Assembly: GCF_964213995.1 (NCBI RefSeq)
Contig: NW_027590164.1
Location: 496,001-560,000, forward strand
Length of the DNA stretch: 64,000 nt
Direction: 5' to 3'
Origin: Mustelus asterias
Taxonomy: Eukaryota
Below, one piece after another: positions 1 to 29,833 of the stretch. The position numbers and the translations under genes are program-made. The first letter of the stretch is position 1; each line of letters opens with the position of its first letter. The notes under the pieces were generated by a model. That model made no database searches, had not been told where the DNA came from, and saw only the letters and a program-made list of their open reading frames with translations.

Positions 1-14
1 ATGATATGAAAATA

Positions 15-98
15 GTAAGAAGTCTCACAACACCAGGTTAGAGTCCAACAGGTTTATCTGGAACCATGAGCTTTCGGAGCGCTGCTCCTTCATCAGGC
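15..98 (-). mobile_element. Short Penelope-like element terminal fragment with a minimal hammerhead ribozyme motif, flanked by a 12-bp direct repeat
   Basis: GATATGAAAATA at 3-14 and 99-110 (TSD-like). The minus strand reads CTGATGA-A-GGAGC-AGC-GCTCC-GAAA-GCTC (HHR core plus helix II). Related ends occur at ~11593-11643 and ~43190-43265. Confidence 0.7.
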
Positions 99-244
99 GA
101 TATGAAAATACAAGCTGGACTGCAGTGAATGAACCTGAGTGAAGTGGTTCTGATCATGTTGAGGGTTTGTTGGGTGATTCACTCTCCTTTGTTCAGACAC
201 AACATGCCCCAACATCCAACTGCAAGACTTCTTTTCTGCACTGC

Positions 245-420
245 CAGCGCAAGCGCAGTTTTCCCTTAGGTGACGTCATTAGAACAGCCTGTCAACGTGT
301 TCGCGCACGTGCAGATTCTGAGCTAATCGCGCAGTCGCAACCATGCGGTGACGCCATCACGCACACACCATTGTGGTGTCATCACGCCCACTTCCGGGGT
401 TCCCACAGTGGCGGGAGTTT
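245..420 (+). promoter_or_regulatory. CpG-rich promoter, probably of the downstream ZNF (pseudo)gene
   Basis: Local CpG enrichment; NRF1-like GCGCAAGCGCA ~247-257; CRE TGACGTCA 271-278; E-box CACGTG ~306-311; ETS CACTTCCGG 390-398. Confidence 0.55.
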
Positions 421-608
421 TGAAATCTCTCTCTGGTTTCTGATCTTTCCAGCTGCAGCTCCCAGAAGCAGATTTATCTTTAAAACAGCGGCATTGTTTC
501 AGAGGCGAGTGCTTGTGACCATTCCTCTGAAACTGAGAGTTTTTAGTGGTGTGTTCTGTTATCTGAGAGAGGTTCCACGTGTGGCTGGTCTGACTTCTTT
601 ACTGTGGA

Positions 609-796
609 TCATAGAATCATAGAAACCCTACAGTGCAGAAGGAGGCCATTCGGCCCATCGAGTCTGCACCGACCACAATCCCACTCAGGCCCTACCCCCA
701 CATATTTTACCCGATAATCCCTCTAACCTACACATCTCAGGACTCTAAGGGGCAATTTTTAACCTGGCCAATCAACCTAACCCGCACATCTTTGGA
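609..796 (-). mobile_element. HE1-type SINE, 3' half
   Basis: Reverse complement of the SINE tail ...GACTCGATGGGCCGAATGGCCTCCTTCTGCACTGTAGGGTTTCTATGATTCTATGA; matches the other copies in the window. Confidence 0.85.
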
Positions 797-983
797 TCTG
801 AATCCATGTCCATCCATTGCTCAGTTTTACCTCTGCCCTCCCTGATCACCTTTCTGTCATTGTCTAACTTCCCTCTGTCTCTAATGCTGGGTATGTTTTA
901 ACTGTGTTTAATATTTTACTGTTAGATTGTCGAAATGAAGTTTCCACTGTTGTCCCTCCCCCGACTATGTATTGATGGTGATA

Positions 984-1256
984 TTTGAATGCAGTCAAAA
1001 AATCTGGAATTTAAAGTCTACTGATGACCATGAAACCATTGTCGATTGTTGTAAAAAACCTATCTGGTTCACTAATGTCCTTTCGGGAAGAAGATCTGCT
1101 GTCCTTACCTGGCCTGGCCTGGCCTACATGTGACTCCAGATTTTCAGCAATGTGGTTGACTCTTATCTGTCTTCTGGAATGGCTGAGCAAGCCACTCAGT
1201 CCAAGGGCAGTTAGGGATGGGCAATAAATGCTGGCTCGTCCTTCTTCTGTGAATGA
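984..1256 (+). mobile_element. Second SINE family fragment (tRNA-like head family; 3' end AGGGATGGGCAATAAATGCTGG)
   Basis: Related sequence at ~2190-2520 (-), ~2523-2745 (+), ~17150-17420 (+), and a shared 3' end at ~7440-7560. Confidence 0.6.
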
Positions 1257-1292
1257 CTTTTTTAAAAAATTACTAGCTTTATCTTCCCACAG

Positions 1293-1617
1293 CATAGAAT
1301 CATGGAATACCTACAGTGCAGAAGGAGGCCATTCAGCCCATCAAGCTTGCACCAACAATAATCCCACCTAGGCCCTATCCCCATAACCTCACATATTTAC
1401 CCTGCTATCCCCTCTGACAGTAATGGGCAATTTAGCTTGACCAATCCATCTAACCTGCACATTTTTGGAGTGTGGGAGGAAACCGGAGCACCCGGAGGAA
1501 ACCCATGCCAGCACAGGGAGAAGGTGCAAACAGCACACTGACAGTCACCCAAGGCTGGAATTCAACCCGGGTCCCTGGTGCTGTGAGGCAGCAGTGCTAA
1601 CCACTGTGCCACCGTGC
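1293..1617 (-). mobile_element. HE1-type SINE, full length
   Basis: tRNA-derived head (GCACGGTGGCACAGTGGTTAGCACTGC, with A/B boxes), central GTGGGTTTCCTCCGGGTGCTCCGGTTTCCTCCCAC core and CR1-like tail, all on the minus strand. Confidence 0.88.
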
Positions 1618-3282
1618 ATCTTTCAGCATCAGGACGTTTTTTTTTCCTGTAGTCAATTTCTCTTCCACTTCTGAGCTGATTGACCATCAAATCCTGCACC
1701 ATTTTTATTCTCCAAATTTCATTCTGCAGTACCTTCCTGAATTGTTCATTCTGTCTCTTTCTCTCGCCACAGGCAGTACCCGGCCTGCTGAGTTAACAAT
1801 TAACAATCAGCCATGGTCGGAAATATTTGGGCAGATATCTAAAAGCTTGGTCAAAGAGGTAGATTTTAAAGAGGAAAGGGAGGTGGACAGCTGTAGAGAG
1901 CGAGGAGACCAGAATTAGAGGAGTGGCGATTTGTCAGCATTGTGCATCTGGAGGAGATTATAGAGATCATGAGAGTCAAGGCCATGAAGAGATTTGAAAA
2001 ATCATTTCAACAATTAAGGTGGTGTCTTAACCAGAAGCTTGTGAGGGTAAGATGAGGGTTTCAGTGGACAATGAGATGAGGCAAAGGTGAAGTTTGATGA
2101 TACTCTGACCAAAATAGGATTCTAATGATGACATGGAAATGTGGTCAGAAACTCATCTTGGGGTCCAATATGAGGGAAGGTGGTGGTGTTATTATTCATT
2201 CATGGGATGTGGTCATTGCTGGCTGACCAGCATTTATTGCCCATCCCTAATTGCCTGAGGGCAGTTGAGAGTCAAGCACATAGCTGTAGCTCTGGAGTCA
2301 TGGGTAGGCCAGACGGAGTAAGGATGGCAGATTTCCAAACAGGTTTTTACAACAATGGTTACATGGTCATCGGTAGATTCTTAATTCCAGCTAATTTTTT
2401 GTTTATTGAATTCAAATTCCATCACTTTCCGTGGTGGGATTCGAACCCGGGCCTCCAGAACGTTGGCTGAGTTTCTGGATTGATAGTCTAGTGACAATAC
2501 CACTTGGCCATCAACTCCCCGTAATGGTATTGTCGCTGGACTAGGAGCCCAGAGACCCAGGCCAAGATCTGGGGGCCATTTGAATTCAATAAAAATAAAA
2601 TTTAAAAAGGCTAATGACAATTGTCGTAGCAACCCATCTTCGTTCACTGATATCCTTTAGGGAAGGAAATCTGCCATCCTTATTTGGCAATATGGTTAGG
2701 GATGGACAATAATCATTGGCAATGCTCACATCCCATTAATTAAAAAAAACACACAATGATACAGATTGGTTCTGCCACAGTTGTCAGGAAGAGTCAGCAG
2801 CCAGGAATTGGACAATGTCTTCAGATTTCCCAGTTTATTATTGGAGGACTGGTGTCAGACAAATTAAACATCAGGCTGATGTGCAGGGCAACTTGGAGGT
2901 GATGTTCACATATAGCTGCTTACCCTAGTCATTCTAGACTGTGGAGATTGAGGGTTTGGGATATTCTGTCACTGTTCCTGTCAAGTTGTACATATAAAAA
3001 ATCTCTACTTCGCTCTGCCTCTCTCACCTCTTTCTCTCTCATCCCATTGCTGTGGCAAGTTTCCTGCCCTCATGTTGGTTCCATAAACCAGCAGATCCAT
3101 TCCGTTCAATTTTACAAACTGCCTTTGTGATCTTGTGGGTTTTCTCATTCTCTCTTTTTTTCTGTTTTAAATCTCTCAGAATATTTGAAGAGAAGGATTT
3201 GCAGCCGGGACATTCAAACCCACAGCAGAATCTGACAGAATTACCCAATTTATCGTAACCCGACTATCATTTTACTTTGAAC

Positions 3283-4329
3283 ATGGATGAAAAAAGCACC
3301 ATTCACAGTGGAGAGAAACCGTTTATGTGTGCTGTGTGTGGACAGGGCTACAGTCGATCATCTGGCCTGTCGAAACACAAACGCAGTCACACTGGAAAGA
3401 AGTTGTGTAAATGTGGGTCTGTGGGAAGGAATTTAATTTCCCATCTGAGCTGGAAATGCAGTGACGCTGTCACACCGGGGAAAAGCTGTTTAACTGTTCC
3501 GAGTGTGGGAAGGGATTTAATCGCAATGCGCATCTGCACCAACACCAGCGCGTTCACACGAGGGAGAGACCATTCACTTGCTCAGTGTGTGAGAAGGGAT
3601 TTACTAGTTCATCTATCCTGCTGAGACACAAGCAGGTTCATACAGACGAAAGACCTTTCAAATGCGCAGAGTGCGGGAAATGCTTTAATAGTTCGAGGGA
3701 ACTGATGAGCCATCGGGGCGGCACGGTAGCACAGTGGTTAGCACTGCTGCTTCACAGCTCCAGGGTCCCGGGTTCGATTCCCGGCTCGGGTCACTGTCTG
3801 TGTGGAGTTTGCACATTCTCCTCGTGTCTGCGTGGGTTTCCTCCGGGTGCTCCGGTTTCCTCCCACAGTCCAAAGATGTGCAGGTTAGGTTGATTGGCCA
3901 GGTTAAAAATTGCCCCTTAGAGTCCTGAGATGCGTAGGTTAGAGGGATTAGCGGGTAAAAATATATGTGTGGGGGTAGGGCCTGGGTGGGATTGTGGTCG
4001 GTGCAGACTCGATGGGCTGAATGGCCTCCTTCTGCACTGTAGGGTTTCTATGATTCTATGAACTCATTCACTCTGATGAAAGACCGTTCAGGTGCTCTCA
4101 CTGTGAGGCTGGGTTCAAGCATTCGTATCAACCCTCTCTCCACCAGCGCACTCACACTGGGGAGAGGCCGTACACCTGCTCCCAGTGTGGGAAGAAATTC
4201 ACTCAGCCATCCCATCTTCGGTTACACGAACGAGTTCACTCTGGGGAGAAACCATTCACTTGCACTGTCTGTAAGAAGAAATTTGCTCATTCATCCCATA
4301 TGTTGAAACACCAGCGAGGTCACAAGTAA
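3283..4329 (+). pseudogene. C2H2 zinc-finger pseudogene (~8 fingers, no KRAB seen)
   Basis: [19 protein letters not shown]..., with TGEKP-type linkers. Disabled by a 1-bp frameshift ~3419, TGA at 3462-3464 and a SINE inserted in finger 5. Ends ...HQRGHK-TAA at 4329; acceptor ~3179; AATAAA 4454-4459. Confidence 0.88.
3715..4060 (+). mobile_element. HE1-type SINE inserted in the ZNF coding exon
   Basis: Full head-core-tail. Removing it restores GAA CTG ATG AGC CAT C|AA CTC ATT CAC (ELMSHQLIH). Confidence 0.93.
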
Positions 4330-5702
4330 TTGCAATGATTGGATATTGTTAATCACGTCCAGGATTGAACTGTGTTCATTTGGGGTCTGTTTTTGCTGAT
4401 GTTACTAACCTCCAGTCCAGTTATACAAGTGCTAATCTCCTGGCTAAAAGTCAAATAAACTGGCTTTGTGTTAAACAATGTGAGTCGCCTGAATATCTGA
4501 CACAAGTTAATTCCTTCTGAAGGATTCTCCGTCTTTCTATCTGCTCCATCCTCACCTCCAAGTGAGAGGAACTCATGGATCTTCTTTGATTGGAAGATTT
4601 CAATCTTAGTGACAGCTGCTTCTGCCGTGTCCATCCCATGCACTAGCCCACCGAGCTAAAATACCCCTTATCTGAGTCCTGCATCTGTATCTTTCTCTAG
4701 ATTCTCCCACCTCCCCTCATGACCTCTGCCCTCAAGACCCACTTCCTGCACCTTCTATCCTATTCTCGCCGAACTGCTGACTACACAACATCCCCATGTG
4801 AGCTTACATTGTTAATGGTTCGCTTCTTTCTTCGGGTATTGTCCCTCTTTCCTTTAAATCTGTTGTCATCTCCCCCCACTCCCCCCAAAATAACAAACAC
4901 ATCACTCCTGCATCAGTCCCTGGTTAAGCAGCACCCTTGTTTTAAAATTTCTATCCTTATTTTCAATCACTGTATGGCCTCGCCCTTCCCTATCTTTGTA
5001 ATCTTCTCCAGCCCCACAACTCTCAAACATCAGATCATTTACAATTCTGGCCTCGTGTAGTGACCATATTTCATTTGCTCGACCAACAGTGGCAGTGCTT
5101 TCAGCGTCATCACCTGTAAGCTCTGGAAATCCCTCCATAAGCCTCTCTACCTCTTTCTCTTTCTTTACGATGCTTCTTAAATGCTTCCTCAAAACTTTGT
5201 AAGTGCAGAGGATTGCTGTAAAATGAGCCATGCTGCAGAAGCTTTTTCACTTAACATGACACATACAAGAATAGCAAATTTCAAAGGGAACAACAATTTA
5301 TTCTGTATGGAAAGAGTTTGCTGATGGGTTGGGAAGTTGATTCTGGCTGAGTCATTGCAATGTGGAATGCTCCAGAGAACAGTTTGTTCCTCCGTGCTTT
5401 TATTTAATTGGAAAATTGAAAGGAGGGAGATGGCAAGTCGCTCACACCAATTGCTGGGAATTGTAGAAAGAATGAAGCTTGTTCTCAGAAAAGAAGTGGA
5501 CAGAACAGCACAGGAAGTGGAATGAAGAACTGGTTCTCATGAGTATCTGGAGTAGGTCTCTATTAGCCCCATCCAACCACATGAGTGTCATATTGGAGAC
5601 CAAGTGAGGGTAAGAAATTGTGCAAAGGGAGATGTGTTTGGACCCCTGTATAAGGGACCATACACTACAGTGGATAAGGTCAGTTGTATTGAAAATGCAA
5701 AC

Positions 5703-5990
5703 GGGCGGCTTGTACAGTGGTTAGCATTGCTGCCTCACAGCGCCAGCGACCTGGGATCACTTCCTGGCTTAGGTCACTATCTATGTGGAGTTTGCACGTT
5801 CACCCTGTGTCTGCATGGGTTTCCTCTGGGTGCTCCAGTTTCCTCCCAGTCCGAATGACATGCTGGTTAGGTGCAAAATTCTCCCCCAGTGTACCTGAAC
5901 AGGCACGGAGTGTGGCGACTAGGGGATTTTCACAGCAACTTCATTGCAGTGTTAATATAAGCCTATTTGTGGCACAAATAAAATAATAAA
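5703..5990 (+). mobile_element. V-SINE variant with HE1 head/core and an alternative 3' tail
   Basis: Same head and core as HE1, but tail ...GGGGATTTTCACAGCAACTTCATTGCAGTGTTAAT...AATAAA. The same tail occurs at 26871-27165 and 45107-45402. Confidence 0.75.
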
Positions 5991-6087
5991 AGTTTTTACT
6001 AAAAAGTCAAATGGTTTTCTCATAACTCGGTGAAGCTCAGAGTCCCAGATAACGGAAGAAGCTGAGAAGGATCAGGACTGTTAGGTA

Positions 6088-6667
6088 CATAGAAATCATA
6101 GAAACCCTACAGTACAGAAAGAGGCCATTCGGCCCATTGAGTCTGCACCGACCACAATCCCACCCAGGCCCTACCCCCACATCCCTACATATTTACCCAC
6201 GAATCCCTCTAACCTACACATCCCAGGACACTAAGGGCAATTTTTAGCATGGCCAATCAACCTAACCCCCACATCTTTGGACTGTGGGAGGAAACCGGAG
6301 CACCCAGAGGAAACCCACGCAGACACGAGGAGAATGTGCAAACTCCACACAGACAGTGACCCAAGCCGGGAATCGAACCCAGGTTCCTGGAGCTGTGAAG
6401 CAGCAGTGCTAACCACTGTGCTACCGTGCCACCATGGTGAAGAATATGCTGCGGACCTCATAGAAATCATAGAAACCCTACAGTACAGAAAGAGGCCATT
6501 CGGCCCATCGAGTCTGCACCGACCACAATCCCACCCAGGCCCCACCCCCATATCCCTACATATTTACCCACTAATCCCTCTAACCAACGCATTCCAGGAC
6601 ACTAAGGGCAATTTTTAGCATGGCCAATCAACCTAACCCGCACATCTTTGGACTGTGTGACTGTGGG
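6088..6667 (-). mobile_element. Two tandem HE1-type SINEs (6088-6433 full; 6458-6667 3' part)
   Basis: Two near-identical CATAGAAATCATAGAAACCCTACAGTACAG starts, both on the minus strand. Confidence 0.88.
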
Positions 6668-7161
6668 ACAATGATGAAAAAGAAGTGAAAAGTGCACCTG
6701 TACCATGGCTATTGTATCAGGAGGACGTTAAGATGGAAGCTCAATCCCCCTCAGCATCTTCATCTGGATGTTATCCAAAACCACATTAGGAAGGGGAATA
6801 ATATCCAAAATGTCAGACAGTAATGGGGTATAATGAATGATGCTGCAACAGCTTTTAACACCAGGGTTGTTAATACCATTAACTTAGCCACTCTTAAGAT
6901 CAGATCTTAACCATACATTTACAACATATGGTCAGGCCCTAAAGTCTCACGTACAAATGATCAATCAAATTATTAAAGAAAGTAAAATTGTATTAAGTGA
7001 ATCTACTGAATGTATAATGTATGGATCTTGGTTGGTGGAACAAGCCAGAGAGATGATATAGTATATTGCTAAAGGAAGATGCACTGCAGCAATTCACCAA
7101 GGCTCCTGAGGCAGCACCTTCCAAACCCACGACCACTTCCATCTTAAAGGACAAGGACAGA

Positions 7162-7295
7162 AGATAAAAGCAAAATACTGTCGATGCAGGAATGTGAAAC
7201 AAAAACAGAATATGGTGGAAAATCTCAGCAGGTCGGACAGCATCTGGGGGGAGAGAATAGACCCAATGCTTTGAGTCCAGATGACCCTTCATCGG
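7162..7295 (-). mobile_element. Penelope-like terminal repeat fragment with a degenerate HHR, nested in an older LINE/SINE 3' fragment
   Basis: Minus strand CCGATGA-A-GGGTC-ATCTG-GACTC-AAAG followed by CAGATGCTG..GACCTGCTGAGATTTTCCA. Imperfect flanking repeats AAGGACAGAAGATA / AAGGGCAGAAAATA. Confidence 0.6.
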
Positions 7296-7917
7296 AAGGG
7301 CAGAAAATACATGGGAATACCACCACCTGCAAGTTCCCCTCCAACCCATTCACCATCCTGAATTGGAAATGTATCACCATTCCTTCACAGTCACCGGGTC
7401 ATAATCCTGGAATCCCCTCCCTAACGGCATTGTGGGTGAACCCACAGCACATGGACTGCAGGGTTTCAAGAAGGCAGCTCACCACCACCTTCTCAAGGGC
7501 AGCTGGGGATGGGCGATAAATGCTGGCCAGCCAGCGCTGCCCATGTCCATGAATCAATTAAGAAAATGGTTCCCTTGTAGTTAACAGACCAACACCTAAA
7601 GGCTATGCCCACTTATCCATTTAATATGACTATGTGTCAGGTTAGAGAGCTGGTACAGGTACAGTCAGTGAGACATCAGTGTGAATGGTTCAATAGGAGG
7701 AATACTACTCCATTCAATCCAGAGACAGTTTCTGATTTTGCTCACTTCTTTGTCATTCTTGTTGAGCCAGTGTGACGGCCTGAGCAATTCAAACCCGATG
7801 AGCTGAGTGGGTGTTCACTGCATCACAGATCTGATCTTGTCCCAAAGCCTTTCCACACTGTCTTCACTGGAGTCTGTGAGAGTGAGGTGGGAAGAAAGCC
7901 ACACCTGCAATTGGTCT

Positions 7918-9109: not shown

Positions 9110-9513
9110 TCCATCCATCCTTTCCATACCTTTTCTCCCCCTTTTATTTCCCTTTCCCCTTTTCCCATTTTACCTCTCTCCCACCCATTCCCTCTCCCCC
9201 TCCCCCCACATCTTCATCTGTCACAGTTGATTTTAGTTTCCCTGCCGTTGGCCATTCACACCCTTTATTCTCTCGATGGACAGCCATTAGCAGCTCTTTA
9301 CCCGAGTTTCTGTAGCTGTGACTCATTTTTTATTCCCTCACCCTGCAGTGTAAATATCTCCCACTTTCTATGCCTTTTAGCTTTGACAAAGAGTCGTCTG
9401 GACTCGAAACGTCCACTCTTTTCTCTCTTTACAGATGCTGCCAGACCTGCTGAGATTTTCCAGCATTTTCTCTTTTGGTTTCAGATTCCAGCATCCGCAG
9501 TAATTTGCTTTTA
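9110..9513 (+). mobile_element. Penelope-like terminal repeat with a hammerhead motif (9379-9417)
   Basis: Pyrimidine-rich segment, then AGCT-TTGACAA-A-GAGTC-GTCTG-GACTC-GAAA-CGTC, then the recurring CAGATGCTGCCAGACCTGCTGAGATTTTCCAGCATTTTC...GCAGTAATTTGCTTTTAT end. Confidence 0.7.
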
Positions 9514-11642
9514 TCCACTTAATCAGTCTTAAAAACATTCAATGACTCTGTCTTCACTGCTCTCTGGGGAAGAGAAACCAAAGACCTTCTGAGAGAAAAA
9601 AACATTTCAATCTCTCTGTCTCAAACGTCTCAAGTCTAGCTCGCTCTCCAGTGCCACACAGAGAAAGCCAGGCCTGTGAAGGAGGGAGAGAGGGAGATGG
9701 AGAAGAACAAAATGGAAGGTCTGCAAACTGACAAAATGATTCACGGCTCAATACCAAAGCGAGTGGTAATGGGACAAGTAAAGTCACAAAAGATGTTCTG
9801 GATGAGGTGTGAATAGCAGCAGTCTGAATACGAAGTAAATAAAACAAAAGGTGAAGATAGCAACAACGAAACACAGAACGCAAAGGGGGCAGAGATTGTG
9901 GTGTAAAATTGTTGAACTCAGTTTTGTTCCGAAGGTTGTAAGATACCTCTTTCAGTTGCGGGAAATATATTTCCCAGTTCGATGACAGGTCACAGTCAGT
10001 CTGTTTCTCTCTCCACAGAGGCTGCCTGACTTGTTGAGTGTTTTCAGCCAAAAGAGAAAATGCTGGAAAATCTCAGCAGGTCTGGCAGCATCGGTAAATA
10101 GGGAAAAGAGCTGAGGTTTCGAGTCCAGGTGACTCTCTTGACAAAAGCAACAATTTGCTTTCATTCATGAGTATTTCCAGCGTTTTCTGTTTTATGTCAC
10201 AGAGAATGTGTAAGAATTGTCACACCCGGAACAGATGTCTCTTCCTCGGGACACTCCAGCTCGGGTCAGGGTGGGGGGATAATGTTCACTGTTTTATATT
10301 TGTGTCTGGTGTGAATAATATCTTAGATTAAACGGAGAAGTTTTTTAAACTGAAGAGAGTAACTGCATTTGGGCGCTGACTTTAAACAACATTAACAAGC
10401 CCGGGCTGCTGGAGAAACATTTAGGGATTTGTGAGCAGTCAGTTCCGGCTGGTTTGAAGTGAAATCCTGTCGGTGCTGCGGCAAATCTGAACTCAAACCA
10501 GACAAACTGGAACCGCTGGGTTAGAGATTCCGGGTGTTGGGATGTGGGAGCTGGGGGAGGGGGAGATGGCGGTAAAACTCTGAGCCTGACTTCAGACAGG
10601 GTGAGCGGGGTAAAGGGGAGGAATGACAGAGTTAATGTGGGAGTCAGGGACAATAGCAGAAGGTGGGAAGCTCTGGAAAGGAGCACGGAGGGTAAAGGCC
10701 ATCAAAGAATGCTTGTTTAAATGAAGATAAAAGCAAAACACTGCGGATGCTGGAATCTGAAACATAAACAGAAAATGCTGGAAAATCTCAGCAGGTTTGA
10801 CAGCATCTGTGTAGAGAGAATAGAGTTAATGCTTCCAGTCTGGATGATCACAGATGTGATCAGACCTGCTGAGGTTTTCCATGACTTTCTGTTTTTGATT
10901 AACTGAAGGTTCAGCAGGGAAAGAAGCAGCGAACTGAACACACTGAACCCAGGGGGAGGGGGTGACCCAGGATAAGCTCAGTGAGGCTCTGCAATGTCCA
11001 TCAACACACCCACATTGAGAGCTGAGAGCGCCAAGGGGGAGGGGAAGGAGAAACTATTTGGGGCACAGCAGGAGGTCACCCCTCCCCCACTCTGTGGTTC
11101 CACAGACCCTCCCACACCTGGGCAGGGTTGGCTCAAGGTGCAGGAAGCTGCAAGCTGAGAGGCTGAGCTGTAAACTGGGCCGGGTTGGGGGTTTGAGTGA
11201 CAGCCCTGGGGCTATATCAGGACAGGAACTGCCACAGATTCCCTCTTTTTCCTGGGACGTTTCACTGGAGCTGTGTTGGTGAGTGTTTGTAATCTCTGTC
11301 TCACTGTCTCGGTAATGGGGGTGGGTTGTAGATTGCTGTGAGTGTTAGACTAAATAACCTCTCCTCATGCTGCCAGTTCCAGTCTGCAGACTCCATTTCT
11401 CAGTCCAGTCTGCTGCTCTGTCTCTCTGTACTTTGCTGCAGTGCTCCACATTCTGAGCAACATCCAGCCCATTGTTATCACCCGAAATTTGAGGCAAACT
11501 CCCTTCACTGTGGCACAGCGGTTAGCACTGCTGCCTCACTGAGTCTGGGTTCGATTCCAGCGGTGGGTGACTGTCTGTGTGGAGTTTGCACAGTAAGAAG
11601 TCTCAGAACACCAGGGTAAATTCCAATACATTTATGTGGAAT

Positions 11643-11802
11643 CAAAGCAAATTACTGCGGCTGCTGGGATTTGAAACCAAAAGAGAAATTGCTGGAAAAT
11701 CTCAGCAGATATGGCAGGATCTGTAAGGAGAGAAAAGAGCTGATGCTTTGAGTCCAGATGACGCTTTGTCAAAGCTTTGAGAAAGGGTCATCTGGACTCG
11801 AA
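11643..11802. mobile_element. Penelope-like terminal repeat with an inverted partial second copy (palindromic HHR pair)
   Basis: 28-bp arms 11747-11774 / 11775-11802 (3 mismatches) centred on AAAGCTTT. Confidence 0.68.
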
Positions 11803-12260
11803 ATAGAACATAGAAAAGCTACAGCACAAACATGCCCTTCGGCCCACAAGTTGCGCCGAACATGTCCCTACCTGCTAGGCTTACTATAATCCTCTATCTT
11901 ACTAACTTCCATGAACTTATCCAAAAGTCTCTTAAAAGACCCTATCGAATCCACCTCCACCACCACTACCGGCAGCCGATTTCACGCACCCACCACCCTC
12001 TGAGTGAAAAACTTACGCCTAACATCTCTTCTCTACCTACTCCCCAGCACCCTAAAACTGACCTCTTGTGGCAACCATTTCAACCCTGGGTAAAAGCCTC
12101 TGAGAATCCACTCTATCAATACACCTCAACATTTTATACACCTCTATCAGGTCACCTCTCATCCTTCGCTTCTCCAAGGAGAAAAGACCTAGTTCTCTCA
12201 ACCTATCCTCATAAGGCATGCCACCGAATCCAGGCAACATCCTTGCAAATCTCCTCTGCA
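11803..12260 (-). mobile_element. CR1/HER1 LINE 3' fragment
   Basis: Translation QRRFARMLPGFGGMPYEDRLRELGLFSLEKRRMRGDLIEVYK; (TTCTATG)n tail. Confidence 0.85.
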
Positions 12261-18650: not shown

Positions 18651-20611
18651 TTTTATGAATTTTTAAACGGCCATCCATTTCTCTGTTCCACCTCTGCCCT
18701 CCCTGATCAGCTCTCTGCCATTGTCTACCTTCCTCTACCTCTAATAATGGGTGTATTTTAACTATTATTTCCGCAAGCTATGTCTTGATGAGGTTTTTAC
18801 CACTTCACAACTCTATTCACTGCTGATTTACCAGCTTAGTCCTACAATGTTCAGGAATTGTTTCTCTTCCACTGGAGATCATTTCCCTTCCACTTCTGAG
18901 CTTATATTGACCAACAAAATCTGATACATTTTTATTTCCTGTAATTCATTCTGCCCACCCTGAAACGTTAATCTTCTTTCTGTCTAAAAGGATGGTCTCT
19001 TTCCCAATGTTCACAATTAAAGGGCAGGAGATGGCTGACATTTAAGGGGACAGTAAATTAATATAGGACAGAGATATGTCTAGTGTTATTATATGGTACC
19101 CAGATTAGATAAATTATTTATGTTTCTGTAATAAAATATATTTATTATTATTTCTTGCATTGTAATATAATACTGTAGCGATGTTATACATTTCCAGTCA
19201 TAAAGTCATTACAGCACAGAAGGAATCCATTCGGTAACTCGAGTCCATGCTGACTCTCTGTATAACATTCCAGTCCCATTCCCACTCTATATCCTCATTC
19301 TCCTGAAAGTTTATTTCCTTCAAGAGCCCATCCACTTTCATTTTTAAATAGAGTCCATAGATATGGATGGAGATTTACAACTTTTTGGGAATGAAATAGG
19401 AAAGAATGTTCCATAGAAACTAGAATTGTCTGCTCTGAATTTCTATCCTATACTGACTGTGATGACTTTTGCAAACTCGTTTCACAGGATATTGAATGAG
19501 GAATCACAGGCAAAAATTTCAACTGTCACGTCTAGACAGAGTCATATTTCTTGGGATCTGAATATCTTGTAATATGGAACTGTAGCTACGTTATATATTT
19601 CCAGACATCTCTTCCCTCAGAGGGTTGTGAGTCTTTTGGATTTCTCTTCCACAGGGACCAGTGGAGGCTGAGGATCATTGAATATATTCCAGTTAGACAG
19701 ATCTTTGATTGACAAGGGTGTCAAGGGTTATGGGGAACAGACAAGAAGATGGAGCAAAAGCTAATACGTGGGGGGATTTCTTCACTCAAGGATGTGGGAA
19801 AGCTTTGGAATTCTCAACCCCTGAGGACAGTGGAGCCTCAGTCATCAACTATTTTCAAGAGTTTGATTGATTGGTTTCTGGATATTGAAGAGATCAAGGG
19901 ATATGGGTTTAGTGTGGGGAGAATGATGCTGAGGTAGATGAACGAATTATCTCATTGAATAGTTTAAAAGGCTCGATGGGCCAAATGGCCGACTGCAGCT
20001 CCTATTTGTTATGGTCTCTGTGTCCAGGACAGGAAGCAGTGAGCATGGATCTGTCAATCAGCCTCAATCAGCACCTTCAAGAGAATTGGGAGGGTGAATA
20101 TTAGATACAGCAGAGTGAGAATGGAGGGAGACTGTGTGGGATGGAGATTTACAGCTTTTGGGGACTGAAATAGGAAAGAATGTTCCATAGAAACGAGAAT
20201 TGTCTGTTCTGAATTTCTATCCTGTACTGACACTGATGACTTTTGTAAACTTGTTTTACAGGATATTGGAAGAGGAATCACAGGCCGAAATCTCAAACGT
20301 CACGTCAGATCTGACAGAGTCATATTCCTTGGGAGCTGAATATCATCGGCCATTGAATCGAGAAGGAGAAATGATTGTCCAGTTTGTCGATTTGAAAAGA
20401 TTTCAAACATCAGTGTGACTGGAAAAGCACCAACACACTGCCACACGCGAGTGAGAGTCTTCCAGTGCACTGACTAAAGAGCTTTAACCAGTTACACAGC
20501 CTGAATAAATATCACACCATTCACAGCGGGGAGAGACTGTACCCGTGTTGTGAGTGAGGACGAGGCTTCAACTGATTGTCCACCCAAGAGAGCGGCAAGG
20601 ACACCTGCACC

Positions 20612-21202
20612 ATGGAGAAACCATGGAAATGTGGGGACTGTGAGAAGAGATACAGATCTCCATCAGAGCTGGAAGCTCATCGGCGCAGCCACACTGGGGA
20701 GAGACCATTCATCTGCTCTCAGTGTGGGGAGGGATACACTCTGTCATCCAGCCTGCAGTCACACCAGCGAGTTCACACTGGGGAGAGACCATTCATCTGC
20801 TCTCAGTGTGGGGAGGGATTCACTCGGTCATCTGACCTGCTGAGACACCAGCGAGTTCACACTGGGGAGAGACCATTCACCTGCTCTCAGTGTGGGGAAG
20901 GATTCACTCAGTCATCCAGCCTGCGGACACACCAGCGAGTTCACAGTGGGGAGAGACCGTTCAGCTGCCCTCAGTGTGGGAACGGATTCACTCAGTCATC
21001 CAGCCTGCGGACACACCAGCGAGTTCACAGTGGGGAGAGGCCATTCACCTGCTCTCAGTGTGGGAAGGGATTCAGTCATTCGTCCAACCTGCAGACACAC
21101 CAGCGAGTTCACACTGGGGAGAGGCCATTCACCTGCTCTCAGTGTGGGGAGGGATTCACTCGGTCCTCCCACCTGTTGAGACACCAGCGAGTTCACGAGT
21201 GA
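20612..21202 (+). CDS. C2H2 zinc-finger protein, 7 fingers, no KRAB/BTB/SCAN seen (196 aa from ATG 20612)
   Basis: Open frame [10 protein letters not shown]...HQRVHE*, with 28-aa repeats C-x2-C-x12-H-x3-H and TGERPF linkers. Upstream acceptor TTTTACAG at ~20261 and degenerate finger relics at ~20440-20600. Confidence 0.85.
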
Positions 21203-21439
21203 TTCCAGGGGTTGGATTCTGCTGTTATTGTTTCTGCTCTCAATTACATCCAGGACTGCATTTTGTTCATTCTCACAGTTGGTCAATGGGGAGGGTCGGA
21301 GGGTTTCTTTCTGCTGGACTGGCCGATCTCATGACTTTGCTTCCAGTGGCTGGTGCTCTTTGAGTCTTGTTGCGAATACCTGGTTTCAAATTTCACACGG
21401 ATCACAGAGTGACAGGGTGTGAGGAAGAGATAGTCACTA

Positions 21440-22560: not shown

Positions 22561-22931
22561 AGATTGTTGCAGGACCGGCTGGTGTTCAGCAGCTGAGAAA
22601 CCTGGAATCTGTGAAAAAGGGCTCTGACTAATCAACAAACGGGGGTAGGAAGCTGACTAAGAAGTTAAGAAGCGTTCTCAGGCATGTTTAAATTATTTTA
22701 TCAGAAATTTGTGATAAGAACTGTGAGGGACTTGTGACCTGATAGTTGGTGAAGTGACGGTATACTCCAAGTAGCACTGGACTGAAAAGCAGATCTCTGA
22801 GAGTAGATTCTAACAGTTATAATCTTACCCAAGCATGGCCAGTGAAAAATCAGAGCTCGAGTGGGGACTGGACAGGTCTCTTACCTGCCATTTGGAAACT
22901 AGGAACAAGAAACCTATCGATTAAAATGATT

Positions 22932-23112
22932 AGAGAATAGAGCCAACCTTTCGAGTCTGGATGACATTTCATAAGAGCTCTTATAAAGGGTCATCCAGAC
23001 TCAAAACATTGGCTCTATTCTCTCTCCACAGATATTGACAGACCTGCTGAGATTTTCCAGAATTTTCTGGGTTTTTTTCAGATTCCAGTATCCGCAGTAT
23101 TTTACTTTTATG
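22932..23112. mobile_element. Penelope-like terminal repeat with an inverted partial copy (46-bp-arm palindrome)
   Basis: Arms 22932-22977 / 22978-23023 (6 mismatches) centred on GAGCTC; each arm holds a degenerate HHR (…TATGAA..GTCATCCAGACTCGAAA). Confidence 0.68.
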
Positions 23113-24024
23113 ATAAAATGATTCGGTCTGATTGGAATCCCCACGACCTTCCCGCAAAACAGAGGGAGTGGTGGCAAAGGGAGAAAAAGGATAAGGATGA
23201 TGAAGTCTGAGTTCTGATTCTCCACTAAGAGGCAATTTAGCATGGCCAATCCACCTAACCCGCACATCTTTGGACTGTGGGAGGAAACCGGAGCACCCGG
23301 AGGAAACCCATGCAGACACAGGAAGAATGTGCAAACTCCACACAGACAGCAACCTGAGCCGGGATATAACAAAAAAAAATTAATAGATGAAGTTTAAAAT
23401 CATTTGTTTTGTTTTAAACTTGTGTAAAGTGATGTAATTGTGTGCCAAGTTTTTTCTGCTCCCTCCCCACCCCTTTAGGTTCTGTAGAAAAGTTAACCCT
23501 TTCAGCAGACAGTTCATTTGTTTTTAAATCGCCTGAAAACTCGTGTATATTTTAGTTTATAATTGAAGATTTCTGGGAATTGGCTAAGATGGGCTTTTGA
23601 CATTTTTAAAGTATAAAAAAGTGATCTTGAGAAGGCAATTTGGTAGGGAGAGGTGGAGGGAGAGATGTTTACAGAGAGGTGTTGAGGGCTGTTGGTTTTA
23701 CAAGTTATCCATGTTTTTGGAGCGGTCACTTCATGTCCTGGTCTGAGAGGGATGGAGAGAAGTCTGTTCAATTGTTAAAGTTAAACTTTCTCCATTAACT
23801 GTTAATCGACACTCTGTTTTTTATCTCTCTGACTTGTTACATTTTTAATGATTAATAAACTTTCTGAATTCACCATTTAAAGTATTCTTTCTTGCCACAT
23901 GGTTAAGACACTGGAACCTGGTGTGATTTACTATTAGGGAGGTTCTTGTAAACAAGAGAACCCTCATAAATCTTAGTTCAAATAAATCAAAGTTCTGACA
24001 AATGGAATGTTATCCTTTATTATT

Positions 24025-24765
24025 CCGGACAAATGAGAGGTAATGCATTTTGGAAGGTCTAATACAGATAGAAAATATACAGTAAATGGCAGAACCCTTA
24101 AGAGTATTGATAGGCAAATGGATCTGGGGTACAGGTACACAGGTCACTGAAAGTGGCAATGCAGGTGGAGAAGGTAGTCAAGAAGGCATACGGCATGCTT
24201 GCCTTCATCGGCCCGGGTATTGAGTTTAAAAATTGGCAAGTCATGTTGCAGCTTTATAGAACCTTAGTTAGGCCGCACTTGAAATATAGTGTTCAATTCT
24301 GGTGCCACACTACCAGAAGGATGTGGAGGCTTTGGAGAGGGTACAGAAAAGACTTACCAGGATGTTGTCTGGTATGGAGCGCATTAGCTCTGAGGAGAGG
24401 TTGGAGAAGCTTGGTTTGTTCTCACTGGAGTGACAGAGGTTGAGGGGGGACCTGATAGAAGTCTACAAGATTGAGAGGCATGGATGGAGTGGATAGTCAG
24501 AAGCTTTTTCCCAGGGTGGAAGGTTTAAAGGAGATGTTCGAGGCAGATTTTTTACAGAATAGCGGGTGTTTGGAACTCGTTGGCGAGGGAGGGAGTGGAA
24601 GCGGATACAGTAGTGACTTTATGGAGCGTCTTGACAAATACATGAATAGGATGGGAATATATATGGTCCCCGGAAGGGTAGGAGGTTTTAGTTAAGTTGG
24701 GCAGCATGGTCGGTGCAGGCTTGGAGGGCTGAAGGGCCTGTTCCTGTGCTGTAATTTTCTTTGTT
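24025..24765 (+). mobile_element. Degenerate CR1 3' fragment
   Basis: QVEKVVKKAYGMLAFI..LYRTLVRPHL; 3' end GAAGGGCCTGTTCCTGTGCTGTA. Confidence 0.82.
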
Positions 24766-26244
24766 CTATTACGAGAGAAATTAAAGATGTTGTACTTCAG
24801 TTATGCAGGGCATTGCTGAGACTGCATCTTGAACACTGGGTGCAACTTTGTCTCCTATTTATGAAATGATACAAATGCATTGAAAGTGGTTCAGAGGAGG
24901 TTTAATAATTGCTTTCCAATTCTTGACCCTCACAGGATAAATTTTGTCCAATTTTTCTTGTCTTCATCTTTGACAAAGAGTAATCCTGACTCAAAATTTT
25001 GTCTCTATTCTCTCTCTACAGATGCTGTCAGACTTGCTGAGATTGTCCAGCATTTTTTGTTTTGTTTCAGATTCCAAAAACAGCAGAATTTTGCTTTTAT
25101 ACCAGTTCTTGTTGGATAAGGGCATCAAAATTATCGGGTATAGCACGAGAACGCAACACAAAAAGATCAGCCATGATCTAAATAAATGGTGGAGCCGACT
25201 CAAAGGGCCAAATGGCCGACTTCTGCTCCGATGTTGAATGTTGATCACAAATTCCTGAGGATTGTGAAACAAGGCTGGAAGATTTGCCTTGCTTGTGTTA
25301 GTGGGAAAATGTCCAGGAGAACCATCACTGTGAAGGACAGTTCTGGGATTAAAGGTTGCCCGACTGGAAAAGGAAAACAATGGAAATAAACCCTTGAGGA
25401 GTGAAGAATCACTTTGGGCTGGTTTTTGGAGAAAGTGTCAACATTCCAAGGCAGAGTAAAATATATTCATTGAGTGGATATTTAATGGTGTTAAGACTAA
25501 AAGGGCAAAGTTTAATTTTACAGTTTAAGGGCTATGTTCCCTATAAAAAAGTGTTTAATCATTGTTGCCTCCAGTTTGTTGGAATAAACATCAGAAAACT
25601 TGAAGTTTTGTCATGTGATTCTTTAATTTGTTTACCGAACAGTTCATTTAAAGCCACATGTTTCGATGTCCCATTTGAGCCTGGGGCACCTTTCTGTCTC
25701 TATTGCTCGTGTCAATGACAGCCAGGCGACGGAGCTGAGGGCTGAATTTAGCTGAGAATAATGGGGCCTGTGCCCCAGTTGGGAAACTGCCCTGGGCGTT
25801 GCACTAATAGAGAGACAGGGAAGTGCTGGAGGACTGAGTGGGAAATGGGCCTCCAACCAATTGTTATATCTGTCACTCAGAGCTAAAGAGAAACCTGTCT
25901 CTTTAAATACATATACAGGGAAGTGGCTGCAATGAAATCTGTCCCTTTTAACCTGCAAAAAGCAGGAGGCTGAGATTGACGGGCTGCAGGAGTCCATTCA
26001 GCCCATCATGTCCCTGCTATCTCTTTGCAAGAACTCTCTGATTCATCTAACTGCTCTGATCTGTCCCCACAGCCCTGCAAATTCCTCCCTTTCAAGTCTT
26101 TACCCTTTGGAAAGATTCTATTGAATCTGCTTTCAGGCAGATCAGAACAACTCGCTGTGTCAAAAAATAAAATCTCATCTCCCCCTCTGACCCCTTTGCC
26201 AATTACCTCAGAGGGACTCAGTTTCTGTTAAAGAGCCTGCCAAG

Positions 26245-26580
26245 GGTGGCACGGTAGCACAGTGGTTAGCACTGCTGCTTCACAGCTCCAGGGTCCCGGG
26301 TTCGATTCCCGGCTCGGGTCACTGTCTGTGGAGTTTGCACATTCTCCTCGTGTCTGTGTGGGTTTCCTCCGGGTGTTCCGGTTTCCTCCCACAGTCCAAA
26401 GATGTGCAGGTTAGGCTGATTGGCCAGGTTAAAAATTGCCCCTTAGAGTCCTGAGATGCGTAGGTTAGCGGGTAAATATTTGGGGGTCGGGCCTGGGTGG
26501 GATTGTGGTCGGTGCAGACTCGATGGGCCGAATGGCCTCCTTTTGCACTGTAGGGTTTCTAGATTTCTATGATTTCTATG
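26245..26580 (+). mobile_element. HE1-type SINE, full length (young subfamily, similar to 3715-4060)
   Basis: Shares the diagnostic GGCCAGGTTAAAAATTGCCCCTTAGAGTCC with the 3715-4060 copy. Confidence 0.9.
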
Positions 26581-26870
26581 AACCCCTCTCACCCACTTTC
26601 CCTAAAGTGCATCAATCTCATCAGAAAAAGTCCAGAAAAATCAAATATTTTTACTGATAAAAGTTTATTAATGAAACAGAACATGGTTAAAACAAACAGA
26701 AAATGACTTGAGGATCAAAGACAATCAGAGTAAAAGGATGTTCACAATGTTCTGGACACAAATGGTTTCTCTCTATCTGTTCCCTGACCTCTTTGTGGTA
26801 AAGGCAGAATTCTCTGGACAGTAAATTTAAAAAGAAGTTTATTGAATGAAAAAGGTTTACTGAACAACTG

Positions 26871-27165
26871 AGCACGGTGGCACAGTGGTTACTGCTGCCT
26901 CACAGCACCAGGGACCTGGGTTCAATTCCCGGCTTGGGTCACTGTCTGTGCGGAGTCTGCACATTCTCCCCATGTCTGCATGGGTTTCCTCCGAGTCCTC
27001 CGGTTTCCTCCCACAGCCAATGATGTGCAGGTTCGGTGGATTGGCCATGCTAAATTCTCATTCAGTGTACCTGAACAGGCGCCAGAGTGTGGCAACTCGG
27101 GGAATTTCACAGTAACTTCATTGCAGCGTGAATGTAAGCCTACTTGTGACTAATAAATAAACTTT
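26871..27165 (+). mobile_element. V-SINE variant with the alternative tail
   Basis: HE1 head/core followed by CTTCATTGCAGCGTGAATGTAAGCCTACTTGTGACTAATAAATAAACTTT. Confidence 0.78.
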
Positions 27166-27641
27166 AAGACATTGACTTTTACAGCTTCATGCGGGTGATC
27201 AGTCTGTAGAAGAGTAACCCTCTCTGGCTCCTTCTTTCACAGGAATTCTTGTGGAATTCAGCTTTGGGAGTCTGGCTCCTTCTTTGACAGTAATTTCCTT
27301 GGAACTTGGCCTTGGGAGGCTTCAGAATTTGGTTCACAAGGAAAACCTTCAGAACCTCTACTTTTATCCCCAAAGTGACCATTACCACACGTCAGAGTTG
27401 GGTCTGTTGGAACATGACAATTGGTCAATTTGGTCTCCAGATTAATTGAATTGGATCTGCAATTACTGACACCACTTTCTCTCATTATCTTAGACAGGAA
27501 TACAAGAGAACGGGTTCATGCTCTCCCTTTATCTGATTCTATACAATCCCTTATTCACACAGTTTCAAATGTTGAGGCTAATCAGAGCTTGAAGATCTCT
27601 CTCGCCAGTACACTACGCCAGCTGCGGCACGGTGGCACAGT

Positions 27642-27986
27642 GAACAAACAACAAGAACAAAGAACAATACAGCACAAGAACAGGCCCTTCGGCCCTCCAA
27701 GCCCGCGCCGCTCCCCGGTCCAGGATTGAATCCTGAATCCAGGATCCCCGCCCAATTTTCCAGCCTATCTACATACCAATATCCTATCCACCGAGCTGTC
27801 CCTCACAGCTACGATGCTTTGTTCATTACAACCTATTAACTCACCCCCACCCCCCCATTCCAGACCATGTGATCTCCAGGGAGAGGCGAAAACCCAGAGT
27901 GAAAAACCCCAGGGCCAATATGGGGAAAAAAAATCTGGGAAATTCCTCTCCGACCCCCTGAGGCGATCGAAACGAGTCCAGGAGAT
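27642..27986 (-). mobile_element. CR1-tailed retroelement 3' end abutting the ZNF 3' UTR
   Basis: Minus-strand end GAAGGGCCTGTTCTTGTGCTGTATTGTTCTTTGTTCTTG is typical of the CR1 3' termini in this window. Confidence 0.6.
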
Positions 27987-27999
27987 CCAACCCTTGGAA

Positions 28000-28842
28000 T
28001 CACTCGTGAACTTGTTGGTGTCTCAGCAGCTGGGATGAAAGACTGAATCCCTTCCCACACTGAGAGCAGGTGAACGGCCTCTCCCCAGTGTGAACTCGCT
28101 GGTGTGTCCGCAGGGCGGATAAATCAATGAATCCCTTCTCACACTGAGAGCAGGTGAACGGTCTCTCCCCAGTATGAACTCGCTGGTGTCTCTGCAGTTT
28201 GGATAACCGAGTGAATCCCTTCCCACACTGAGAGCAGGTGAATAGCCTCTCCCCAGTGTGAACTCGCTGGTGTGTCAGCAGGCTGGATGACTGAGTAAAT
28301 CCCTTCCCACACTGAGAGCAGGTGAACGGCCTCTCCCCAGTATGAACTCGCTGGTGTCTCTGCAGTTTGGATAACCGAGTGAATCCCTTCCCACACTGAG
28401 AGCAGGTGAATAGCCTCTCCCCAGTGTGAACCCGCTGGTGTCTCTGCAGGCTGGATGACTGAGTGAATCCCTTCCCACACTGAGAGCAGGTGAAGGGCCC
28501 CTCCCCAGTGTGAACTCGCTGGTGTCTCTGCAGGGTGGATAACTGAGTAAATCCCTTCCCACACTGAGAGCAGGTGAACGGTCTCTCCCCAGTGTGAACT
28601 CGCTGGTGTGTCTGCAGGTTGGATAACCGAGTGAATTCCGTCCCACACTGAGAGCAGGTGAATGGTTTCTCCCCAGTGTGAACTCGCTGGTGTGTCTGCA
28701 GGCTGGATAACTGAGTGAATCCCGCCCCACACTGAGAGCAGGTGAATGGTCTCTCCCCCGTGTGGCTGCGCCGATGAGCTTCCAGTTCAGAGGGGTATTT
28801 GTATCTCTTCCCACAGTCTGCACATTTCCATGGTTTCTCCAT
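28000..28842 (-). CDS. C2H2 zinc-finger protein, 10 fingers, no KRAB seen (280 aa from ATG 28842); paralogue of 20612-21202
   Basis: Open frame [10 protein letters not shown]...HQQVHE* with ten 28-aa fingers. Upstream exon/acceptor region is homologous to 20170-20610. Confidence 0.87.
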
Positions 28843-29833
28843 GGTGCAGGTGTTCTTGCCTCTCTTCAGTTGAAGACTCGTCCACACCCCTGCTGTGAAT
28901 GGTGTGATATTTATTCAGGCTGTGTAACTGGTTCAAGCTCAGTGCACTGGAACACACTCACTCCAGTCTGGCAGTGTGTTGGCGCTTTTCCAGTCACACT
29001 AATATTTGAAATCTTTTCAAGTCATCAGGCCGGACAACCATTTCTCCTCGATTCAAAGGCCGATGATATTCAGCTCCCAAGGAATGTGACTGTCAGATTG
29101 AGATGTGACGTTTGAGATTTCAGCCTGTGATTCCTCTTTCAATATCCTGTAAAACAAGTTTACAGAGATCATCAGTGTCAGTGCAGGATGGAAATTCAGA
29201 ACACACAATTCTAGTTTCTATGGAACATTCTTTCCTCTCTCCAGACTCGAAACATTGGCTCTATTCTCTCTCCATCTGGGGGATAGTGTGGGAAATGATG
29301 CTGCACTAGATCAGCCAATTCTCAATGAATGGTTGAGGCAGTTCGATGGGCTGAATAGCCAACTGCAGCTCCTGTTTCTTATGATTTGTGTGTGGTGGAC
29401 AGGAAGCAGTGAGCATGGATCTGTCAATCAGCCTCAATCAGCACCTTCAGGAGAATTGGGAGGGTGAATATTAGATACAGCAGAGTGAGAATGGAGGGAG
29501 AGTGTGTGGGATGGAGATTCACAGCTTTTGGGGAACGAGAGAGGAACGAATGTTCTTTAGAATCATAGAATTCTTACATCTTATCAACCGTCCCTGAGCC
29601 TTCACAATGAATCTCTCTTCTCAGGACACTCTTATCTCTGACTTGTCTGTACTGCTCGCAGTCTCACAAAGCAGCTGCCTGTGTGTCGATACGAGGGGCC
29701 CTGCGAGGCAAGTTTAATGCTCCATGACTGTGTCTTTAATGACTGAATAACTATAGGAATATGGTCAAGTCAGCTAAACCACATGATGCTTTATATTTCG
29801 GTTAGTAACTGTTGATTTTGTTAACGTAGCACG

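Follow-up and report, generated by a model that had tools for sequence, protein, structure and literature searches.

Hammerhead-bearing repeats in a Mustelus asterias locus as pLTR insertions of Penelope-like elements

Hammerhead motifs and the elements that carry them

Short dispersed repeats with a hammerhead-like core raise the question of which elements they come from and whether they could still cut host RNAs. We addressed it in a 64,000-nt window of the Mustelus asterias assembly GCF_964213995.1 (NW_027590164.1, positions 496,001–560,000, forward strand). Two motifs quoted in a preliminary description of this DNA, family A at 96–65 on the reverse strand and family B at 9379–9417 on the forward strand, matched the sequence. 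Both have a bulged A after A9, a helix II of 5 bp, and a palindromic helix III (AGCU or ACGU). A strict fold descriptor returned exactly two sites in the window, namely these motifs, against a mean of 0.02 sites in 100 dinucleotide shuffles (98 with none, two with one), so they exceed chance. An Rfam scan of the window gave no match to the hammerhead family at E ≤ 5; its matches were hairpin look-alikes. The copies at 96 and 9383 have the core CUGANGA/UUGANAA and GAAA, with positions 3 and 8 paired, and the family-type motifs show the bulge 9/10.1, the G10.1–C11.1 pair, the palindromic 15.2–16.2 and the NUH triplet of min-HHRs.

The proposal that the repeats carry minimal type I hammerheads from Penelope-like elements (PLEs) held, and RT/GIY-YIG ORFs are linked to their pseudo-LTRs (pLTRs). 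Locus L078 holds a 732-aa open frame. Its ORF and those of L080 and L085 match Pfam RVT_1 (L080 below the cut-off) and carry YIDD-type, CX2-5CxxC, GIY-YIG-type and CCHH motifs, the CX2-5CxxC linker being present in all three. Pfam did not match GIY-YIG in these ORFs, where the endonuclease was recognised by motif, and a PDB sequence search with the L080 ORF gave 0 matches. For family A, the link is to a second PLE ORF, whose C-terminus matches 5 of 30 loci. No intact pLTR–ORF–pLTR copy was found; the hammerhead lies upstream of the ORF in L308, which starts at the hammerhead and continues into the ORF (ATG at +168), and downstream in 26 of the 30 loci selected by the B endonuclease peptide (B1 hammerhead, same strand, 272–536 nt away). 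A single pLTR-linked ORF with RT followed by a GIY-YIG endonuclease is the organization of an EN+ PLE. The repeats are the pLTR ends of autonomous RT and GIY-YIG PLEs, present in thousands of copies genome-wide, and the stubs are truncated insertions of these autonomous elements, with a 37-nt tail and target-site duplications.

All seven sites previously assigned to family B hold a homologous repeat, but only those at 9379, 10108 and 11738 belong to the U3–A8 subfamily B1; the four at 7265, 22940, 24968 and 29242 carry diagnostics of its sister subfamily B2, whose core is C3–G8. The family A pLTR stub (14–100, reverse strand) has its core C3 at 96 and a predicted cut between 68 and 67. Its helix I closing pair is broken (C–A, mismatch at 67), its 3' end is short and without tail, and a 12-nt target-site duplication lies at 3–14 and 99–110. 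The B1 copy at 9119–9515 (forward strand) comprises 3' UTR, the hammerhead at 9379–9417 and a 3' end with tail. Its TATA box is mutated at 9349, and it has a full core, but two of its four helix I pairs (9414–9417) are broken, namely those adjoining the cut (9414–9415). At 9995–10145, a B1 arm (10048–10145, reverse strand) is joined to a short opposite arm (9995–10048, forward strand); the 10108 arm was one base out of register in our 12-arm layout, but when read by eye A6 and the palindrome are still changed. A B1 head-to-head pair on both strands (11641–11803) is centred on the helix I tetramer at 11773–11776, with GAAA broken in the left arm and the right arm stopping after GAAA. Its tail is adjoined by a family A fragment (11580–11644, reverse strand) that has no hammerhead core and begins about 1 nt past the predicted cut.

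The B2 copies are likewise damaged. The stub at 7162–7299 (reverse strand) has mutated U4 and GAAA, the head-to-head pair at 10725–10900 (both strands), absent from the preliminary list, has no 5' core, and a second such pair at 22932–23111 (both strands, centre 22976–22979, 10-nt target-site duplication) has both cores mutated. The copy at 24926–25100 (forward strand) has a U3–A8 core on a B2 background, reached by two transitions, with GAAA, palindrome and helix I all broken, and in the fragment at 29240–29274 (forward strand) the 5' half of the core is absent. A family A 3' fragment at 43192–43268 (forward strand) has a tail and no hammerhead. Core, GAAA, palindrome and helix I were all kept in 0 of 12 window arms (11 B-type and the A copy), and both full-core copies have a mismatched helix I and so do not form a pairable one. 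As read from their sequences, none of the window copies is intact; they are probably inert and likely do not cut host RNAs.

Lineages and the pairing of core positions 3 and 8

Exact 29-mers of family A number 4,372 genome-wide (reversed controls, 0). Core matches number 6,504 for U3–A8 (B1; reversed controls, 0), 3,066 for C3–G8 (B2), 1,155 for C3–A8 and 252 for U3–G8. The difference CUGAUGA versus UUGACAA between families A and B had been read as covariation. Pairing of positions 3 and 8 is indeed kept in the source elements, but the pLTRs of A and B cannot be aligned (best match 12 nt, E 0.08) and their ORFs are 33% identical, so A versus B provides no covariation. On the sequence comparison, the genuine 3–8 covariation is that of B1 (U3–A8) with B2 (C3–G8), sister subfamilies in which both cores are present and whose pLTRs are 82% identical. 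This covariation is a single evolutionary event and its copies are not independent.

All 30 C3–G8 loci were of B2 type, and all 30 C3–A8 loci read as products of CpG decay, 26 of them on a B2 background. Among copies with a B1 background, the extrapolated counts of the two single changes are close to each other (about 100 and 115). The mixed cores (C3–A8, U3–G8) look like decay after insertion. An amplified U3–G8 or C3–A8 intermediate was sought and none was seen.

The family-type helix I can pair, over 4 bp in B1 and B2 and over 3–4 bp with a compensatory change in A. Among 43 A-lineage rows, the closing pair was U–A in 25, C–G in 15, U–G in one and mismatched in two, and N17 was never G; core-selected loci were left out of this tabulation and of that of arm starts.

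Insert ends, a proposed life cycle and its rivals

With L269 left out, a downstream 44-mer selected 29 young B1 copies; 20 of them have their first base between −6 and −1, where helix I opens, and none starts at the cut. Starts near helix I were also found in 37 of 54 B2 copies (60 loci, with three B1-type and three unaligned left out) and in 19 of 30 A copies. Among 37 long B1 copies, a TATA box lies 30 nt upstream in 23 and 29 nt upstream in two, with exact TATAAA absent in 12; this survey and the arm-start table left out L178–L207, which are largely segmental duplicates. Besides B1, the 30-nt spacing is found in B2 and in two A subfamilies. The TATA box is absent at −35 in two A subfamilies, yet A-lineage copies begin near helix I. 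Of the 64 arms in a blind 400-kb sample, only 18 start near the beginning of helix I and two at the cut; 17 reach further upstream, and 27 start at other internal points. Since 20 of the 29 young B1 copies start at helix I, 30 nt below the TATA box, and none at the cut, the ribozyme probably lies at the start of the transcript and is copied uncut; we infer the transcription start at helix I from the TATA motif and the insert ends. Among 142 A-lineage arms, six start either at the cut or one base past it (p about 0.03 when set against neighbouring positions), so some templates may be cleaved. A non-templated C precedes the 5' tetramer in 12 of 26 cases, some of the rows being misclassed (p 0.015).

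The 3' ends lie at +97 and +131–134 in B and at +83–86 and +119–120 in A, giving an optional tail of 30–40 bp, and inverted 5'-truncated arms are present. The two ends, 37 nt apart, agree with the PLE tail and with the pair of RT start sites described in PMC11167929. It is very likely that the repeats are short, mutated pLTR insertions of three PLE lineages (A, B1 and B2), with the hammerhead likely at the RNA start and likely copied uncut. Transcription would begin with the first base of helix I, about 30 nt below the TATA box. An element protein would nick the target and begin reverse transcription at +97 or +134 (B), sites 37 nt apart, and RT would then run off the RNA 5' end, which would give the stubs a length of about 100 or 137 nt. 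Two cDNAs, from both target strands, could join through the self-complementary helix I tetramer into head-to-head pairs. In the source elements the ribozyme would have been selected for and, acting as a dimer or assisted by protein, would cut off about 35 nt of leader; the U3–A8 core was presumably fixed a single time, in the B1 master. Genomic stubs would then decay neutrally and are probably inert.

The stubs had also been proposed to form a separate non-autonomous, retrozyme-like family with its own short RNA, seeding working ribozymes in ZNF transcripts. Many copies do measure about 100–137 nt, share one sharply defined start and have target-site duplications of their own, and PLE pLTRs are the origin of animal retrozymes (bioRxiv 10.64898/2026.07.22.740005). 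However, retrozymes are by definition tandem arrays in which every unit has a ribozyme, and the tandem arrays of the window have no motif; of 47 neighbour pairs within 1 kb, 37 lie on opposite strands and 10 on the same strand, 200–700 nt apart. The stubs also form a continuum with copies that include UTR and ORF, they have no TATA box, and with 0 of 12 intact window arms this reading is largely refuted and highly improbable. A retrozyme-like nature was therefore not borne out, the stubs being truncated autonomous PLEs without tandem arrays, and seeding of self-cleaving motifs in ZNF introns and UTRs is unsupported since both full-core window copies have a broken helix I. Placement of the stubs in ZNF introns or UTRs is backed by no gene model. 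Their local density is ordinary (about 14 arms per 64 kb against 64 arms per 400 kb sampled elsewhere). A further reading takes the sharp 5' boundary as a 3' splice site or an RT stop at the ribozyme fold. Acceptor-like sequence is found there in B1 and B2 (a pyrimidine tract and AG at the helix I start in B1), the intron end of D. virilis Penelope maps to helix I (PMC4209133), and TATA is absent in some A subfamilies. Against this, copies starting at the boundary have no upstream exon in common, family A has no AG there, an RT moving 3' to 5' would be expected to stall at the 3' side of the fold (+35), and the 30-nt TATA spacing is repeated in B1, B2 and two A subfamilies, which makes the reading very unlikely.

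The B1 ribozyme itself might be a weakened or dead relic of CpG decay in a master copy that hitch-hiked, in which case the covariation says little of catalysis. G8A is very frequent (1,155 copies), because the G8 of B2 lies in a CpG, and the U3–A8 change is one event. A cleavage footprint in B1 was rejected: 62 copies start at the cut and 77 at a control position 4 nt downstream, whose count is also raised by comparable junctions and small deletions. None of 30 inspected cut-site starts was clean on an unrelated flank, and 0 of 53 arms began at the cut. The 30 comprised 12 junctions to the 5' tetramer of the opposite arm, nine with the ribozyme kept upstream, six other inverted arms and three internal deletions. 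On the other side, U3 is also fixed in B1, restoring the 3–8 pair; B1 keeps all other core bases and a 4-bp helix I (G–U of B2 to A–U); an amplified C3–A8 subfamily was not seen; and the same swap recurs in Schistosoma PLEs (PMC4209133). The difference in cut-site starts between A and B was not significant (Fisher p 0.18–0.19), and such a relic is unlikely. Monomer and cofold energies were uninformative on the active dimer, which cofolding does not model.

Returning to the transcript-initial, uncut ribozyme, a dimer-dependent hammerhead in the first 35 nt of a PLE transcript might act as a concentration-sensing decapping switch, an extension that we regard as quite unlikely. Abundant element RNA would then pair, lose its capped leader and drop out of translation and copying; the start-anchored stubs, in their hundreds of thousands, would represent run-off cDNAs, and intact stubs read through by host genes could be partners in trans. 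If this were true, B1 (U3–A8) and B2 (C3–G8) would be a natural test pair for the effect of the swap.

Relation to known systems

PLE hammerheads and the U3–A8 core are already published and the window copies appear dead, so the finding as first given is ordinary. The genome adds two sister elements whose cores differ in one compensated pair, and its insert ends, in their thousands, point to a ribozyme at the RNA 5' end, copied uncut. The role of PLE hammerheads is stated as still unclear in PMC8557442, and their cleavage as dimers was reported by Lunse et al., as cited in the review PMC6765202. Beyond the cited papers, we found no literature on copies starting at the transcription start, on shark PLE hammerheads or on U3–A8 tests, in a search that stopped short of the bioRxiv supplements and of PMC4209133 supplement file 1.

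The U3–A8 core is a published PLE variant, known from Cercyon of Schistosoma mansoni (Cervera and De la Pena 2014, PMC4209133). The min-HHRs in that paper resemble those described here in being type I, with a helix I of 3–4 bp, a bulge between 9 and 10.1, G10.1–C11.1, a palindromic 15.2–16.2 without loop 3 and U3–A8 as an alternative core, and in occurring mainly as dispersed solo copies of truncated PLEs and opposite-strand pairs. They differ in host lineage and in helix II (7–8 bp versus 5 bp here), and here both cores occur in sister subfamilies. The vertebrate rows in the available part of their alignment are all C3–G8, and shark, skate, Callorhinchus and Leucoraja are absent from the searched part of the supplement.

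Neptune/Nematis-type C-terminal EN+ PLEs (Craig et al. 2021, PMC8557442) share the RT, the CX2-5CxxC linker, the CCHH GIY-YIG, and an inverted 5'-truncated arm with a 30–40 bp tail on one end. This likeness is one of motifs, and the extreme share of 100–137 nt stubs with one start was not found described in the available part of that paper. Poseidon PAc of Anolis (Frangieh et al. 2024, PMC11167929) likewise has two internal RT start sites that define the tail; both target strands are cut and extended, the template is uncut RNA, and cleavage needs the C3–G8 pair. The PAc ribozyme overlaps the start codon, whereas in B1 about 170 nt separate the ribozyme, at the inferred transcription start, from the ATG downstream of it. 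Animal non-LTR retrozymes (bioRxiv 10.64898/2026.07.22.740005) are similarly non-coding and PLE-related with a type I hammerhead, but form tandem arrays, whereas the copies here are solo or inverted pLTR stubs.

Hammerhead motifs and their surroundings in the window

Both hammerhead motifs quoted in the preliminary description, family A at 66-100 (-) and family B at 9379-9417 (+), were present on direct reading of the window. A strict descriptor required a paired 3-8 core, 4 bp or more in helix II, GAAA, a palindromic tetramer and H at position 17. It matched exactly two sites, one with C3 at 96 (-) and the other with U3 at 9383 (+); 100 dinucleotide-shuffled windows gave a mean of 0.02 matches. 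The feature is real and exceeds chance expectation, and an Rfam scan of the window detected neither motif. The seven sites earlier assigned to a single family B were divided between two lineages: those at 9379, 10108 and 11738 are B1, and the other four are B2. Target-site duplications flank the copies at 14-100 (12 nt) and 22932-23111 (10 nt). Core, GAAA, palindrome and helix I were jointly intact in none of the 12 pseudo-LTR (pLTR) copies, or arms, scored in the window, and the helix I pair adjoining the predicted cleavage site (the cut) was mismatched in each of the two full-core copies; most likely, none of the copies in the window is active. An A-family fragment (11580-11644) starts one base past the predicted cut and joins a B1 tail via a 4-nt shared sequence.

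The window holds about 14 arms, compared with 64 in a 400-kb sample fetched blind close to contig ends, and there is therefore no enrichment at ZNF genes, whose frames lie at 3259-4330 (+), 20576-21202 (+) and 28000-28914 (-). The retrozyme-like reading is largely refuted: no tandem array in the window contains a hammerhead motif, and of 47 close neighbour pairs 37 have their members on opposite strands, so that the copies depart from retrozymes as defined in bioRxiv 10.64898/2026.07.22.740005.

Immunoglobulin V-set frames occur beside the ZNF cluster at 35524-36036 (-) and 47741-48124 (-), both by Pfam, and at 59538-59921 (+); they resemble T-cell receptor V segments. The latter two sit within an inverted duplication of 1,448 nt, whose halves are 99% identical. 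Positions about 600-4320 and 60030-63730 form a direct duplication (98-100% identical, including a broken ZNF gene), either a recent segmental duplication or an assembly artefact. A locus on a different contig (L016) shows 98.8% identity to the 9379 region. Also present are a CR1-like LINE at 38784-42749 (-), with a GDSL esterase (PF13472) as its first ORF; broken frames at 52770-54232 (-), which resemble a hAT/Buster-type transposase and match no Pfam family; and a 52-bp GC-rich minisatellite (29817-30433), which lies upstream of the ZNF frame on the minus strand at a distance of about 1 kb.

Penelope-like elements carrying the motifs

In the 3.68-Gb genome, the exact A 29-mer occurred 4,372 times and the B1 motif 6,504 times (reversed controls, 0 each). 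The flanks of B copies code for the C-terminus of a GIY-YIG-type endonuclease, with 16,595 first-look candidates for its peptide, and 26 of 30 loci fetched via this peptide had a B1 hammerhead on the same strand, 272-536 nt further downstream. Frames in long copies span 732 and 518 aa, match RVT_1 and contain a CX2-5CxxC linker together with endonuclease motifs of CCHH type; in this linker they agree with the Neptune/Nematis definition of PMC8557442. Family A represents a second Penelope-like element (PLE), with an ORF 33% identical to that of B, and 5 of 30 A loci matched its C-terminus. These RT/GIY-YIG-type ORFs tied to hammerhead-bearing pLTRs bear out the Penelope link proposed earlier, and no intact pLTR-ORF-pLTR copy was found among the loci examined.

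One B1 copy (L308) has its 5' end at the hammerhead and runs on into the ORF, where an ATG lies at +168 from U3. Its reverse strand bears, at +135 to +168, a branch-point-like sequence, a pyrimidine tract and CAG directly before the ATG, and the sequence at +52 and at about +103 also resembles acceptor sites. Possibly the 5' UTR contains an intron whose splicing would take out the RT start region. At G000:C15:80.4-84.5 Mb, duplicated fragments of the B1 PLE number in the dozens (L179-L207, e.g. L183, L182), four of the fetched copies sharing an A9G core change; the frame adjoining L183 resembles a GPCR C-terminus.

Core variants of lineages B1 and B2

The covariation first proposed between the A and B cores did not hold, because their pLTRs do not align and the comparison is between unrelated sequences. 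Genome-wide counts in B context were 6,504 for U3-A8, 3,066 for C3-G8, 1,155 for C3-A8 and 252 for U3-G8. The two paired classes correspond to sister subfamilies: B1 (U3-A8, GUC, helix I wholly Watson-Crick) and B2 (C3-G8, GUU, helix I with a single G-U pair). The two share 82% identity across 168 nt of pLTR and 76% across the 705 nt upstream. Each of the 30 C3-A8 loci has the sequence of the CpG-decay product, 26 in B2 background, and the 30 U3-G8 loci comprised 18 B2 and 12 B1. The core swap is real, yet a single event, and the copies are non-independent. Across 43 A-lineage rows, the helix I closing pair was U-A in 25, C-G in 15 and U-G in 1, the other 2 having a mismatch, and position 17 was never G, which lends further support. 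The U3-A8 core, bulge and palindrome are already in print in PMC4209133, whose supplementary alignment, in the portion searched, includes U3-A8 in Schistosoma and no rows from cartilaginous fish. The one useful addition is the B1/B2 sister pair, a natural experiment on the core swap.

Ends of the short insertions

In families A and B alike, 3' ends fall at two positions 37 nt apart, the intervening stretch being the PLE tail, which PMC11167929 relates to a pair of internal RT start sites; the same paper reports that the template is uncut RNA and that cleavage took place solely with protein present. Among 29 B1 copies chosen by a downstream 44-mer rather than the core, 5' ends were sharp, at -6 to -1 from U3 in 20; another 5 reached further upstream, 4 began between +5 and +8, and no copy began at the cut. 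Start points also clustered in core-picked sets (B1 30/40, B2 37/54, A 19/30), and 23 of 37 long B1 copies had a TATA box 30 nt upstream. Palindromic junctions centred on the 5' tetramer occurred in 14 of 77 B1 arms bearing it. The short insertions are probably run-off cDNAs reaching the transcription start, and would have been linked pairwise via the self-complementary tetramer. For rotifer PLEs a predicted TATA and initiator within a pLTR have been described (PMC3846280), whereas Drosophila virilis Penelope has an internal promoter without TATA (PMC2377424). Against a start-site reading, however, the common start was seen in only 18 of 64 arms of the blind 400-kb sample, and two A subfamilies (L284, L301), unlike L027 and L085, have no TATA box at -35.

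B1 showed no excess of starts at the cut: there were 62 matches there and 77 at a control position. Of 30 B1 matches inspected, none had a clean cut-site start on unrelated flank. Among A-lineage arms from pooled loci, 6 of 142 started at the cut or one base on (p about 0.03), compared with 0 of 53 B1 and 0 of 14 B2 arms; the A versus B difference was not significant. Where a B1 copy starts at the 5' tetramer (e.g. L230, L234, L270, L308), the base before it was C in 12 of 26 cases, compared with T in 34 of 37 long copies (p 0.015), and this C is possibly non-templated.
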